The notes under the pieces: generated by a model
What the model saw: only the letters and a program-made list of their open reading frames with translations
Told to the model about the DNA's origin: nothing
The model's database searches: none
Shown: in pieces, positions 1,048 to 27,380 of the stretch
Layout of the letters: each line of letters opens with the position of its first letter
Position numbering within the stretch: position 1 is the first letter of the stretch
Program-made: the position numbers and the translations under genes
Sequence record: OR896832.1
DNA length: 64,000 bases
DNA from: Escherichia phage GoldenSnicker
Strand: one strand, 5' to 3'

Positions 1048-3951
1048 ATGGCAGATTTAAGCAGAATCCAATTTAAACGTACTAGCACTAAAGGCCGTCG
1101 ACCTGATGCTGGTACGATGAATCCGGGGGAATTGGCAATCAACCTTGCGGATCAATATCTTCTTACTAAAAATGATTCCGGTGCTATTATCAATTTAAGT
1201 TGTCCTCCGGTTTATGACAGCGATGTTACAATGGCGGGTAAGGTTAAAGGAAATAATTATATTTTAAGTAAAACCGCTAATTATTTTGAAGACCAAACCG
1301 CGCGAGATCTTAATTATTTTGGTGCGTTTCGACCGAATAATGCTGATGGTTGGTCTAACTTGATTCTGAACATTCCTCATCCCAGCGGTAAAGCACACGG
1401 TCGCGGGTTTGAATTTGAATATGGTTCTAGTTCCTCTCAGGTTAAAACCTATGGCTTTGATAAGGATGGTAACAAGAGATTCAGCTTTCGCATGTATCAC
1501 GAAGGTGATAAACCTACTCCCTCAGAATTGAACGTCTATAGCAAACAAGAAATTGACCGTATGTTTGTTAAGAACGTTAAAATGTCCACTCCTTCCGGTG
1601 AAGCAACCCGTGGTTATTTTAAAATTGCATCCGCAATGATCCCGCAGAGTGGTCGGATGGCGTTTCTGCGAATCTATGGTGGGAACGGATTTAATGTTAA
1701 CTCCTACGATCAGGTGGATTTCCTTGAAATTGTGATTCGTAGTGGTAATAATAACCCTAAAGGCGTTAGTATTGCTGCATATCGTCGAAATTCTTTGAAC
1801 GTCCATGAAGTATTTGCAATTAATACTTCCGGTGATAACTATGACATTTATGTTAACTATGGTCGCTTCACCGATAACGTTATTGTAGAGTTTGGAAAAA
1901 CTGTTGATGTTGCATTGACTGTTCACGATGTTCCTGAATTTTCGGCGACTAAACCAGAAACCGGAACTAAATTTGATGCTCGTGTTATTACCATGTTCAA
2001 CACCGAAAACAAAGCAGGAACGTTGATGTTTGATAATAACTCACAAGCAACCTATGATATTGTGAGCCTTAGCAATGCACCTGATAATAGCCGAAATTAT
2101 CTGCGTAAATTCCGTAGCAAAGCGAATGAAACAATATGGCATGAAACTGTTCAAGGTGATGTGTATCGTTTGGCTACTGGTTCCACCGACCAAAAAGAAG
2201 TATTAAAAATTGTTGGTAGTGATGGTTTATTTGTCAATAGACTTCATCTGCAAGGCAATAACGCGATTCGTATGTGGCGTCCTACTGGTTGTAGTAACTA
2301 TTTTGAATATATGGATCAGCGAGACGGGGCTAATAAACGTCAAGGGTGGTTTGGTTTTGGTTCTACAGAAACCAACGATTTTCAATGGTATAGTGACGAA
2401 GGTAAAAACTTTGTTAAGCTAGAAGCAAGTGGTCAAGTATCTTTAAGCGCAGGTGCAACCAAAATTGTATACACTAATGGTCAATATGTAGCTGCCAATT
2501 CTGATGCATACCGTATGATCTTTGGTAATTATGGTGCATTCTGGCGTAATGACGGCACTAAAGTTTATCTTATGTCTACTGCCGAAAATGATAGATTTGG
2601 TGGCTGGAATGCCTATCGTCCATTCATTTATGATTTAACTTCCGGTAACGTTCAATTAGGCGGTGATGGTAACGAAGATGCATTAACGTTAGAAAGTGCT
2701 TCTCGTGCCGCTCGCTTTAGTAATGACGTTTACATTAAGAAAGGGCTTTTGACTTTCGACGCTGGACGATTAGGATCTCGTGATTTCTTTAAAATCAACC
2801 ATTGGGGTGATAGCAATAACGCCCGTGATAACATTTTGCAGTTTGAAGACAGTCAGGGCGCACATTTTACCACTGAACGTGCTATGGGTACTGGTAACAT
2901 AACAGCACGTTTTAAAGGCTTTGTTCGTGTAGAATCTGGCGAAATTGCATTTGATGCTAATCGGGGGTCGCAGTCTCAATTTACCTTACACACATGGGGT
3001 AACGAGCAACGCAAACAGGTTTTTGAATGTAAGGATGCTACAAGTTATCACTGGTATACTGAACGTACTCAGGGTGGCACTGGACCTATTCTGTTCTGTA
3101 TGGCTGGTAGTCTAAACGTTGGTAGCAATATCACAACAACTGGTGCTGATATTACGTTTAAACGCGCTGGCAATAAGCACATCTGGTTTAGAGATCCAGA
3201 CGGTTTAGAGTTGGGCTTGATGTATTGCGATGACGCTGGTGTTATTCGCTTCCGTGGTCAGAAACAAGCCCAGGCGTGGAAATTTGCAGATAAAATGATC
3301 CAGTTGGAATCTGGTACTGTATCTGGTGGCGGTAATGGCCTGATTCGTGGTGAAGTTGCTGGCGGTAGTTGGGCTAGCTGGCGTGACCGTGCTGCTGGCC
3401 TTATGGTTGGGTGTCCTCAATCAACCGATTCCGCTCATAACATCTGGAAAGCTACTCATTGGGGTAAATATCACATCGCAGCAATGGGTGTACACGTTCC
3501 TAGCGGTACTATCGGTAATGCTATAGCTCGCCTAAACGTTCATGACGCCAACTTTGAATTTAGCGCCTCCGGTGACATGTCGGCAGGGCGTAACGGTTCG
3601 TTTAACGATGTTTATATTCGTTCTGATACTCGCCTTAAAATCAATAAGGAAGAGTATAAGGAGAATGCCACCGATAAAGTTAATCGCTTGACGGTATACA
3701 CCTATGACAAGGTTAAATCTTTAACCGACCGTACTGTCATTGCTCATGAAGTTGGTATTATTGCTCAGGATCTTGAAAAAGAATTGCCGGAAGCCGTAAC
3801 AACTTCTAAGATCGGCGATCCTGATAAGCCAGAAGAGATCTTAACAATTTCTAACTCTGCTGTCAACGCTCTTTTAATTAAGGCGTTTCAGGAAATGAGC
3901 GAAGAACTTAAAGCCGTTAAAGCTGAACTAGCGGAACTTAAAAAGAATTAA
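1048..3951 (+). CDS. 37: long tail fiber distal subunit gp37 with C-terminal intramolecular chaperone-like domain
   Basis: 967 aa; N-terminus MADLSRIQFKRTSTKG..GELAINL matches T4 gp37 N-terminus; C-terminal ~110 aa (..VIAHEVGIIAQDLEKELPEAV..ALLIKAFQEM..coiled coil) resembles S74-type auto-cleaving chaperone domains; RBS AAGGA. Confidence 0.88.
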   Translation: MADLSRIQFKRTSTKGRRPDAGTMNPGELAINLADQYLLTKNDSGAIINLSCPPVYDSDVTMAGKVKGNNYILSKTANYFEDQTARDLNYFGAFRPNNADGWSNLILNIPHPSGKAHGRGFEFEYGSSSSQVKTYGFDKDGNKRFSFRMYHEGDKPTPSELNVYSKQEIDRMFVKNVKMSTPSGEATRGYFKIASAMIPQSGRMAFLRIYGGNGFNVNSYDQVDFLEIVIRSGNNNPKGVSIAAYRRNSLNVHEVFAINTSGDNYDIYVNYGRFTDNVIVEFGKTVDVALTVHDVPEFSATKPETGTKFDARVITMFNTENKAGTLMFDNNSQATYDIVSLSNAPDNSRNYLRKFRSKANETIWHETVQGDVYRLATGSTDQKEVLKIVGSDGLFVNRLHLQGNNAIRMWRPTGCSNYFEYMDQRDGANKRQGWFGFGSTETNDFQWYSDEGKNFVKLEASGQVSLSAGATKIVYTNGQYVAANSDAYRMIFGNYGAFWRNDGTKVYLMSTAENDRFGGWNAYRPFIYDLTSGNVQLGGDGNEDALTLESASRAARFSNDVYIKKGLLTFDAGRLGSRDFFKINHWGDSNNARDNILQFEDSQGAHFTTERAMGTGNITARFKGFVRVESGEIAFDANRGSQSQFTLHTWGNEQRKQVFECKDATSYHWYTERTQGGTGPILFCMAGSLNVGSNITTTGADITFKRAGNKHIWFRDPDGLELGLMYCDDAGVIRFRGQKQAQAWKFADKMIQLESGTVSGGGNGLIRGEVAGGSWASWRDRAAGLMVGCPQSTDSAHNIWKATHWGKYHIAAMGVHVPSGTIGNAIARLNVHDANFEFSASGDMSAGRNGSFNDVYIRSDTRLKINKEEYKENATDKVNRLTVYTYDKVKSLTDRTVIAHEVGIIAQDLEKELPEAVTTSKIGDPDKPEEILTISNSAVNALLIKAFQEMSEELKAVKAELAELKKN

Positions 3952-6919: not shown

Positions 6920-7207
6920 TTATTTTCGGTTGTGGTCGCGATATGTTTTAAAATATCCCTCGTACCACGGTAAAATATCTGGATTTTTACCACTATACAG
7001 ACCTTTAACCATCATGTCAATAAGGCCATCTGGTGTTTGATAGTTTCCAGCTTTTATAAGCTCTCTGATTAAAATCTCTCTGTATATGTCTTTCGGATCT
7101 TCGTAATCAACTTGTATTGTGGTTGTGGTCTCATTCAATTTGGTTTCTGGAGTATCTCGCATTGCATCCCACCAATCTTTTGTGACCTTCATGTTATTGA
7201 ATTGCAT
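6920..7207 (-). CDS. hypothetical protein (95 aa)
   Basis: Track ORF in co-directional array. Confidence 0.5.
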   Translation of the reverse strand: MQFNNMKVTKDWWDAMRDTPETKLNETTTTIQVDYEDPKDIYREILIRELIKAGNYQTPDGLIDMMVKGLYSGKNPDILPWYEGYFKTYRDHNRK

Positions 7208-7218
7208 AATTTAACCTC

Positions 7219-7977
7219 TTACTTGCAAACGTATTGATCTACATCAATTGCGCCACCGAATGTAGGGTGACGTTTTTCAAATCGAATAGTTCCGTCGTTT
7301 GGTTCGAAAACGGAGTATTCATATAGATCTTTCTTGCCAACATTCTTATAAAACCCGCCTTTAGTCATAACGGTTTCTTGTACGTTTGCTTTGTGTACGT
7401 TGTATTCATCAATGTATACAAAATCAACCATCTTCCCATTTTTAATGGTTACTTTAAGATCCCCTGGCTTGTTTCCATATTTTGCATACAGTGGAGCTTC
7501 TTTAATTTTGGTGGAAATTCCATCTTTCATACTCCACTCATAACGAACGGTGCATTGATAGGTAAAAGTTTCGACCTTCTGTTCTTCCACCATTTTTTCT
7601 TCCTGTTTCGGTTGTTCTTCGTCAACCTTCACAGAAGTCTCTGAATCGCTTTCTGACGCGGTTTCTTCTTTAGGTAATACATTCATCAAGTTTTGGATTT
7701 GAGCGTTGTATACAGCCTCCAGTGGCTGAATCTGCCCGATATTGATCATTGTATCACGAACAGTTTTATTCCAGTTGCGTTGCTCTTGTTTCAGAGACGG
7801 ATCAATCTTAACAGCCTTAACATATACTTCATGAAGTTTAGAATCCAGTGCGGAGATTGACTCATTAGCACAAATAAACTTCTCTGATTTTGTAGTGGCT
7901 TTAGCGCAATCAAAGGACGCAGCATTAGCACCGAAAGCAGTAGCGGAAAGAACGATAGCAGCGATAATGTTTTTCAT
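7219..7977 (-). CDS. secreted protein with N-terminal DUF1311/LprI-like (lysozyme-inhibitor-like) domain
   Basis: Signal peptide MKNIIAAIVLSATAFGANA; FDCAKATTKSEKFICANESISALDSKLHEVY..QEQRNWNKTVRD fits C..A.T..E..IC..L..LD..L..Y..QR.W...RD pattern; first gene after promoter 8014..8042. Confidence 0.6.
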   Translation of the reverse strand: MKNIIAAIVLSATAFGANAASFDCAKATTKSEKFICANESISALDSKLHEVYVKAVKIDPSLKQEQRNWNKTVRDTMINIGQIQPLEAVYNAQIQNLMNVLPKEETASESDSETSVKVDEEQPKQEEKMVEEQKVETFTYQCTVRYEWSMKDGISTKIKEAPLYAKYGNKPGDLKVTIKNGKMVDFVYIDEYNVHKANVQETVMTKGGFYKNVGKKDLYEYSVFEPNDGTIRFEKRHPTFGGAIDVDQYVCK

Positions 7978-8013
7978 AATATATTCCTCAGTGTTTTTTG
8001 TCTTGATGGGAGT

Positions 8014-8042
8014 ATCTTACTACTCCCTTAATCCGGTGTCAA
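8014..8042 (-). promoter_or_regulatory. sigma70-type early promoter (TTGACA-17-TAAGAT) with hairpin GGGAGTA-N6-TACTCCC overlapping -10
   Basis: Minus-strand TTGACACCGGATTAAGGGAGTAGTAAGATACTCCC; ~35 nt upstream of ATG at 7977. Confidence 0.6.
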
Positions 8043-8488: not shown

Positions 8489-8517
8489 GTGATTCTCCTT
8501 TCGTTTGGTATGGGAGT

Positions 8518-8546
8518 ATGTTACTACTCCCTTATCTTTACGTCAA
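8518..8546 (-). promoter_or_regulatory. sigma70-type early promoter (TTGACG-17-TAACAT) with hairpin GGGAGTA-N6-TACTCCC
   Basis: Minus-strand TTGACGTAAAGATAAGGGAGTAGTAACATACTCCC upstream of ATG at 8488. Confidence 0.55.
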
Positions 8547-25967: not shown

Positions 25968-27380
25968 TTAGAAAGTCATGTTATTTGCTAGCTCGTCGAG
26001 TTTTTCTCGTTTCTCGGCTTGCTGTGCGCTTTGTGGTTTAACTTGTGCATTCTCCTGATCTGCGATCTGGTTTGGTACTTCATACCAACGCTGATTGCCT
26101 TTTTTCACACCAACGTTAAACCGTGAATAATAGTTCTTATCACCGTAACGAGACTTGATCTGCTTCATGAGTTGGACGCCCATTTTAGCCAGGTCTTCGG
26201 TTTCGATAACACCCAACATAAAGTCGGCAGTAGCCGGAAGACCTGCTGATTCAGCGGTATCACTCATGTTAAGGTCGGAAGCATCCCAACCCGCGCGGGT
26301 AGTCTGTGCCGCAGTCCAACCAACAACATCCCACTTAACAAAAAATCCTCGCAGTTCTTCCGCAATCGCCTTAACTAGTGTGTAACTATTTTCAGAGTAT
26401 ACACGCAAGCGAGACGATGCGCAAATCCCCAGATAGTCAACAATCACAACATCAGGTTTAAACTGTTTCTTGAGTCGCAATTCATTCATTAACGCCTCAA
26501 AGTGATTGGAGTTCGCGCCACCAGTCGGATACTGCTTGATCATCAATTTTCCAACCGGACGATCTCCGATCTTCTTATTCTTAACACGCTTCATACGTGC
26601 GGAATATTCCGCAAAAGAAACATTACCATTATCCAATTCATCTAATGTAATGTCAAGCAAGTTTGCGTCGATACGTTTGGCTACGACATGCTCTGCCATC
26701 TCCATTGAGATATACAATACATCATAACCACATTCCATATAATCCGCAGCAAGAGAACATAATCCAAGCGATTTACCAACATTTACACCAGCAAGCAACA
26801 CATTTAGCGTTTTTCTTTCCGCACCTCCTTTCGTGATTTTATTCAACATCGGCAGCTTAAACGGGATCTTATTCGCCTTAGTCTGATATAGCAAGAATCG
26901 TTTTTCAAAGTCATTAAACCAGTCATGACCTACATCAGAATCAAACGTAATGGATAGTGCTTCCTGCATGATCTCAGGAATAGCACCCTCACTCGGCAAT
27001 TTCTTATTCTGTTTCTCTTTTGGTAGTTGTGCGTTCGCCTGAATCTCTAGCGCCCGTGACATTGCATTATACATGGCACGGTCACGAATAAATTTTTCGG
27101 TTTCCTTCATTAACCAATCAAGGTCTTCCGGTGTATTCTCAAGCGAATCAAGAAGAGTTTTAGCCCCTTCATATGTTGTCTGATTGCCTCTCTCCTTGTC
27201 TAAAGCAATCTGTAATGCAGTTGGCGTAGGAATGTTGGAATATTCGTCTACGTGCTTTTTAATCAGCTTATAAATCAGTTTTTCTTCGTCTTCGGTGAAG
27301 TAGTCCGCTTTAAGGTGAGGCCATACATTCGTAAAGAATGCGCCATTGTAAATCAACTGTGAAAAGATAGTTTTAATCAT
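25968..27380 (-). CDS. 41: replicative DNA helicase gp41 (DnaB-like)
   Basis: 470 aa; Walker A LLAGVNVGKS; RecA-like C-terminal domain; position between 61 and uvsX. Confidence 0.9.
   Translation of the reverse strand: MIKTIFSQLIYNGAFFTNVWPHLKADYFTEDEEKLIYKLIKKHVDEYSNIPTPTALQIALDKERGNQTTYEGAKTLLDSLENTPEDLDWLMKETEKFIRDRAMYNAMSRALEIQANAQLPKEKQNKKLPSEGAIPEIMQEALSITFDSDVGHDWFNDFEKRFLLYQTKANKIPFKLPMLNKITKGGAERKTLNVLLAGVNVGKSLGLCSLAADYMECGYDVLYISMEMAEHVVAKRIDANLLDITLDELDNGNVSFAEYSARMKRVKNKKIGDRPVGKLMIKQYPTGGANSNHFEALMNELRLKKQFKPDVVIVDYLGICASSRLRVYSENSYTLVKAIAEELRGFFVKWDVVGWTAAQTTRAGWDASDLNMSDTAESAGLPATADFMLGVIETEDLAKMGVQLMKQIKSRYGDKNYYSRFNVGVKKGNQRWYEVPNQIADQENAQVKPQSAQQAEKREKLDELANNMTF

Follow-up and report, generated by a model that had tools for sequence, protein, structure and literature searches.

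What does a virulent T4-type phage do with a small exported protein whose N-terminal part is constant and whose C-terminal part is exchanged between close relatives? The protein in question is encoded in the window analysed here (the whole 64,000-nt stretch of Escherichia phage GoldenSnicker, OR896832.1, a Krischvirus, i.e. an RB49-like phage of the T4 type) by a CDS at 7219..7977 on the minus strand, which starts with ATG and encodes 252 aa plus a stop; its translation matches exactly the 252-aa product that an initial annotation had quoted for 7219-7977. The gene is the orthologue of RB49p262 (NP_891833), labelled 'hypothetical' in RB49, its product belongs to PHROG 14799, and the 2 kb around it are 92–99% identical to RB49, ECD7, TB34 and others. 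It is not mentioned in the papers comparing RB49 and phi1, and a weak DUF1311 match (E 0.2) for the RB49 ORF was tabulated already in 2006 (PMC1524935). Our answer, which we hold tentatively, is that the protein may be a periplasmic, two-module inhibitor or binder of incoming muramidases with exchangeable specificity.

In RB49 the gene lies among small leftward ORFs of the early region, with the holin gene t on one side and the topoisomerase gene 52 on the other. A Shine-Dalgarno-like GAGGAA can be read 6 nt 5' of the ATG (7984..7989, minus strand), and a promoter scan found, upstream of the ORF, a sigma-70-like site, TTGACA-17-TAAGAT, at 8042..8014 (minus strand), with its -35 hexamer at 8042..8037 and its -10 hexamer at 8019..8014. 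The -10 hexamer is contained in a hairpin with a 7-bp stem (GGGAGTA/TCTTAC/TACTCCC, 8008..8027), and scan and sequence together delimit a putative promoter-early-stem-loop (PeSL)-like element at 8008..8042 (minus strand), a layout known from the hyperplastic regions of RB49 and phi1 (PMC2839356). A promoter is annotated at the matching place in the GEC-3S record. Because the gene is on the early-gene strand, located between t and gene 52 and preceded by a sigma-70-like site, it is probably expressed early. A second hairpin at 8512..8531 is nearly identical to the first (GGGAGTA-loop-TACTCCC); both stand upstream of consecutive small early ORFs and resemble the PeSL cassettes that have been proposed as drivers of gene shuffling in RB49 and phi1.

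The initial annotation had described the product as a signal peptide followed by a DUF1311 (LprI-like) pattern, an acidic linker and an unknown C-terminal domain, and we recovered each of these parts. The first 19 residues, MKNIIAAIVLSATAFGANA (7921..7977, minus strand), have the n/h/c layout and AxA site of a Sec-type signal peptide and contain no lipobox; cleavage at ANA/ASFDC is predicted from these sequence features, pLDDT in this segment being below 50. The mature protein would thus begin with ASFDC, the start of a DUF1311/LprI-type helical domain at aa 20–101 (7675..7920, minus strand) with the cysteine pair C24/C36. Pfam PF07007 (LprI/DUF1311) matches aa 24–76 with 24.7 bits, above its gathering score of 22 (E 3e-5), the match spanning only profile positions 1–71 of 106; 28 of the 29 family members match the same profile, the best with an E of 4e-29. 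AlphaFold2, given the 29-sequence alignment, predicts a helical bundle over aa 24–98 (pLDDT about 90) that resembles solved DUF1311 structures.

Residues A20, S21, F22, D23, C24 and C36 (the motif ASFDC...EK.IC) are invariant in all 29 sequences, and the ASFDC...C36 columns are invariant as well in the 80 best of at least 521 bacterial relatives, where ASFDC also follows directly on the AxA site. A second cysteine pair (CxDxxC) before the last helix, which bacterial members carry almost without exception (conservation of at least 90% among the 80 best, at C84 and C89 of their alignment), is absent from the phage protein, where the region reads RDTMINIGQIQPLEAVY; the pair is a common family feature rather than a strictly defining one. 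Matches in Klebsiella and Aeromonas T4-like phages, SSU5 and ev099 are confined to the N-terminal end of the query, about 70–95 aa comprising signal peptide and DUF1311, and for this reason the DUF1311 module may also occur without a barrel, with a function of its own.

The linker at aa 102–136 (7570..7674, minus strand) carries a net charge of -8 (pI 4.3) and is predicted to be disordered, with pLDDT below 50 across aa 104–132. It leads into the polymorphic C-terminal domain at aa 137–252 (7222..7569, minus strand; allele A1 in the window), for which AlphaFold2 confidently predicts an 8-stranded antiparallel beta-barrel of MliC/PliC size (aa 135–251, pLDDT about 90). No more than three positions of this domain are the same in every allele: C142, G153 and C251. 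The model places the two cysteines in the first strand (C142; 135–151) and the last (C251; 244–251), where a disulfide could link these strands. A disulfide joins the same two strands in Neisseria ACP (PMC5507604), the Cys76-Cys154 disulfide stabilises Brucella PhiA (PMC8334348), and the MliC domain of E. coli has cysteines close to its two ends (sequence checked against PDB 2f09).

By sequence the C-terminal domain is an orphan. A word-index search for relatives came back empty, and among 1.84 billion representatives an exhaustive phmmer search matched only one family member and four other proteins; we judged these four, whose matched stretches are repeated, to be spurious, the two that we inspected being tandem-repeat proteins. 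Searches of the PDB by sequence, with the single sequence and with two profiles, gave nothing significant, Foldseek against the PDB gave only weak matches (best E 6e-3), and PADLOC and NCBIfam gave nothing meaningful. The closest natural soluble structural matches of the barrel include the MliC/PliC/PhiA inhibitor barrels, and of the inhibitor-type proteins PhiA ranks in the top two for each of the two alleles modelled; Cap15, OmpW, lipocalins, TbpB/fHbp and designed barrels score equal to or above them. Barrels of eight strands are common.

We then compared the domain directly with the MliC family. None of the 29 family members matches Pfam MliC (PF09864), and hhalign of the C-domain against the MliC alignment gave a probability of 0.5% for both allele groups; neither this comparison nor that of allele group A with group B was significant, only the first 21 residues aligning. 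The SxSGAxY loop and YxxxTKG strand motifs, which insert into c-type lysozyme as loop motifs (PMC5507604), are both without conservation in the C-domain alignment. Judged by its sequence, the barrel is not a member of MliC.

The nearest parallels in architecture are M. tuberculosis LprI, which combines DUF1311 and MliC domains and whose MliC part was reported to be sufficient for lysozyme resistance (PMC7933661), and a true DUF1311-to-MliC protein of Arenimonas (L049:3854-4522; LprI at 55–111, MliC at 147–213). All three proteins have an export signal, an N-terminal DUF1311 domain and a C-terminal 8-stranded barrel of about 70–115 aa, and both the Arenimonas MliC domain and the barrel of the window have a cysteine near each end (FDC...KCK and YQC...VCK, respectively). 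However, LprI and the Arenimonas protein are lipoproteins with a true MliC domain bearing an SGSGxKY motif, while the phage protein is predicted from its AxA site to be soluble, has a 35-aa acidic linker and a polymorphic barrel, and lacks MliC signal and motifs. ACP and PhiA also adopt the MliC/PliC fold without the canonical motif, but they are single-domain proteins without DUF1311 and only 6–15% identical, and PhiA inhibited neither SagA nor hen lysozyme when assayed in vitro (PMC8334348). The combination of DUF1311 and a barrel was known before; here it is phage-borne, soluble and polymorphic.

The polymorphism is sharply delimited. In 16 close homologues the first ~105 residues are almost identical and divergence is complete past the linker. 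At the DNA level, comparison of the window with Phi1, GEC-3S and UPWr_E1 gives 93–100% identity up to about nt 360 of the gene, 33–65% in the barrel and again about 88–100% in the outer flanks, with the breakpoint in the 3' part of the linker at about 7570..7618. The gene is present in all 58 matching Krischvirus records, its first 378 nt being 93.7–99.2% identical throughout. The barrel falls into at least six discrete alleles that are 20–53% identical to each other. Among the Krischvirus isolates we found the window type (A1) in 44 records, each 95–99% identical to the window across this allele; the Phi1 type, 37% identical to A1, in 11; the JSE type (group B) in two; and the UPWr_E1 type in one.

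Such discrete, divergent barrels on a constant N-terminal module look like the outcome of an arms race with variable partners, and they would also be expected of a periplasmic exclusion or defence factor that does not act on muramidases at all. Its barrel would bind some other variable element that comes in from outside (a rival phage's tail-tip, tape-measure or ejection proteins, or the translocation domains of colicins and bacteriocins) or the periplasmic face of a receptor, with DUF1311 as a mere handle. We regard this reading, to which we return below, as unlikely. One form of it, blocking of the phage's own receptor, we rejected. The receptor-binding end of gp37, the distal tail-fibre tip (2749..3948, plus strand), is a mosaic with 62–99.7% aa identity among Krischviruses that are otherwise ~95% identical, the tip type of the window being found besides only in TB34 and SAP. 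The gp37 tip type is no guide to the barrel allele: AV108 has a Phi1-type barrel and Makalu_003 an A1 barrel, and their gp37 tips are equally similar, an independence that argues against a block of the phage's own receptor.

A toxin-immunity cassette made up of the barrel and the product of the next ORF downstream was also considered and rejected. This 95-aa ORF, RB49p261 (6920..7207, minus strand), occurs in two alleles, 52% identical, across Krischviruses, and its product has no family match in NCBIfam. Its alleles are not locked to those of the barrel, UPWr_E1 having another barrel with the same ORF allele, and no enzyme-like fold is predicted. A toxin-immunity pair is unlikely because the two loci do not co-vary and because the prophage copies described next retain only ~70–80 nt from the start of RB49p261.

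Chromosomal copies of the gene were found in 26 of 5426 complete E. coli genomes, and in these the first 371–408 nt are 94.6–96.5% identical to the window while the remainder diverges. In the four strains examined, the gene is the last one of a lambdoid prophage (with GpA terminase and Rha) and adjoins a truncated or displaced hicB; the copy at L006:9001-9771 of the E. coli H2 chromosome is one example, and the loci L002 and L004 are alike. To be the last gene before an attachment-site remnant in hicB is a typical moron position, which is a point in favour of the muramidase reading, as is the presence of the gene in all 58 Krischvirus records, and also of the exclusion or defence factor without muramidase target. 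Homology between phage and prophage begins 6 nt 5' of the ATG, ends in the linker (nt 371–408) and, in two of the three prophage loci examined (L004 and L006), resumes after the stop at ~80% identity over 70–80 nt that correspond to the start of the Krischvirus ORF RB49p261. Because a remnant of the downstream ORF follows the prophage gene, the comparison argues that the prophage copy was captured from a Krischvirus-like virulent genome and not the reverse. Two barrel types, group B and the P0011-14 type, are common to prophages and virulent phages, and the P0003/P0010 type known from metagenome contigs is also seen in one E. coli prophage.

The E. coli homologues are named 'lysozyme inhibitor LprI family protein' by NCBI. 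This name, the LprI-like layout and the fact that prophage morons often carry host-fitness factors could suggest a classical inhibitor of animal c-type lysozyme (the MliC/PliC function), a fitness or virulence gene of the bacterial host whose presence in the phage is incidental. We find this highly improbable: the two loop motifs and any profile similarity are missing, a virulent phage would gain little from such an inhibitor within one latent period and yet the gene is universal among the Krischviruses, and transfer appears to have run from virulent phage to prophage and not the other way. The Pfam name is not in itself evidence of function, the DUF1311/LprI domain itself having no experimental evidence for lysozyme inhibition (PMC7933661), and insofar as the functional proposal of the initial annotation leaned on that name it was weak.

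A scan of one genome per species found the start AASFDC[AT]KA in at least 521 bacterial proteins. The 80 best of these are nearly all 200–600 aa long, with a signal peptide and DUF1311 in front of a C-terminus that varies strongly and in most cases has no Pfam match; the few C-termini that Pfam recognises are DUF3298 (4), the T4 Imm family (2), MliC (1) and ankyrin repeats (1). DUF3298 also occurs in RsiV, a receptor for lysozyme (PMC5014341). The two Imm fusions, from betaproteobacterial MAGs (L023:3971-4735 and L025:3965-4735), have an N-terminal DUF1311, a Pro/Ala-rich linker and a T4 Imm-family (PF14373) membrane domain, a hint of a link between DUF1311 and superinfection immunity. HMMs of the phage barrels matched none of the C-termini of the 80 bacterial proteins. 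In Pantoea, genes with an LprI domain figure as orphan immunity candidates that neighbour lysozyme-, pesticin- and endolysin-like T6SS effectors, by genomic association only (PMC9796082; bioRxiv 10.1101/2023.03.17.533219). Gene and domain neighbourhoods, taken as context, do direct attention to cell-wall hydrolases and phage entry.

These relatives bear on the readings in different ways. The occurrence of the 'ASFDCAKA' module before very different C-termini, and the Imm fusions, which suggest a tie to phage entry and not to lysozyme itself, fit the exclusion factor with a non-muramidase partner; but apart from Imm and ankyrin, the recognisable partners of DUF1311 are domains of lysozyme-binding proteins. 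The claim of the initial annotation that the product is lysozyme-inhibitor-like therefore survives in part: the predicted MliC/PliC-sized barrel and the DUF1311 fusions with MliC, DUF3298 and Imm agree with it, but MliC motifs and profile signal do not back it.

Salmonella ScwA, which contains only LprI/DUF1311 and is a periplasmic, disulfide-stabilised member of the family, as the phage protein is predicted to be, suggests a different role. ScwA has no part in lysozyme resistance; it governs how much MltD and other hydrolases are present, and its overproduction leads to lysis (PMC7933661). The phage protein could likewise modulate peptidoglycan-remodelling enzymes of the host and so condition the envelope or tune the timing of lysis, and the DUF1311-only homologues in Klebsiella and Aeromonas T4-like phages, which suggest that the N-domain may act alone, as well as the position of the gene in the early region near t and rIIB, would agree with this. 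At the same time, conserved host enzymes would leave the polymorphism of the barrel unexplained, proximity is the sole link to the lysis genes, and ScwA is itself a different, all-helical protein that has its LprI domain at the C-terminus (PMC7933661). We consider such a role quite unlikely.

The muramidase reading was examined further against the lysis and exclusion genes of the phage itself. Most of what is understood about superinfection exclusion in T4-type phages comes from Imm and Spackle of T4. Homologues of T4 sp and imm were not found in RB49 by tblastn over all but 150–152 kb, which lies within the tail-fibre gene block, nor did T4 Spackle show similarity to the window gene in tblastn searches of the window and the same part of RB49. 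A Spackle-like stretch in the window (26121..26315, minus strand; 27% over 74 aa, E 0.04) lies inside the gene 41 helicase and was taken as chance. The niche of Spackle in RB49 thus appears unfilled. RB49 gp5 (L013:15150-16952) contains a Phage_lysozyme domain (aa 189–320), and the RB49 endolysin (L013:4719-5108) is a Peptidase_M15_4 protein, a non-muramidase and not a T4-type lysozyme; with an M15-peptidase endolysin, a periplasmic inhibitor of muramidases need not hinder the phage's own lysis.

Spackle (gp61.3), an inhibitor of the gp5 tail lysozyme with a part in superinfection exclusion (PMC7677548), is like the protein studied here in being phage-encoded in the early region, with a signal peptide and a periplasmic location. 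It is unlike it in being a 97-aa single-domain helical bundle (PMC7677548), conserved rather than polymorphic, and without sequence similarity. The phage protein would be a functional analogue of Spackle from outside the Spackle family. The Spackle-like role put forward in the initial annotation is consistent with the lysozyme domain of RB49 gp5, the M15 endolysin and the failure to find sp and imm, but no kinship with Spackle supports it.

The polymorphism is hard to square with one conserved target, for example the gp5 of the phage itself: gp5 is a core gene and therefore unlikely to need six deeply divergent binders, so that the targets, if they are muramidases, are probably foreign and diverse. 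On the two-module, muramidase-binding reading that we tentatively favour, RB49-like phages early in infection, and lysogens of the lambdoid E. coli prophage, would make a soluble periplasmic protein. A constant DUF1311 helical bundle, starting right at the signal-peptide cleavage site, would be connected through a flexible acidic tether to an exchangeable 8-stranded barrel whose cysteines could form a disulfide clamp, the arrangement seen in DUF1311-MliC lysozyme inhibitors. The protein would bind and neutralise peptidoglycan-cutting muramidases that enter the periplasm from outside; candidate targets are the gp5-type tail lysozymes that superinfecting phages bring with them and perhaps also muramidases of T6SS or bacteriocin origin. 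The barrel allele would determine which enzyme is recognised, and the outcome would be superinfection exclusion or resistance to lysis from without. A wider version, which we think rather doubtful, sees here a modular, polymorphic exclusion or anti-muramidase system whose barrels are traded by recombination in the linker between virulent T4-type phages and prophages, each allele being directed against different hydrolases of incoming phages, T6SS or bacteriocins; if true, polymorphic immunity proteins would have a counterpart in the periplasm.

RB49-like phages are in use in phage therapy cocktails. That the gene is universal in a genus of therapeutic phages, shared with prophages and directly testable makes it moderately interesting, and its transfer from a virulent to a temperate phage appears clear-cut. 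If the proposed function is true, a conserved early periplasmic protein with swappable recognition barrels, common to Krischviruses and E. coli prophages, would represent a new and testable principle of exclusion or defence, and it might account in part for the resistance of certain lysogens to certain phages. We would also gain a first handle on the role of the very common proteobacterial proteins in which DUF1311 serves as a handle for a variable C-terminus.
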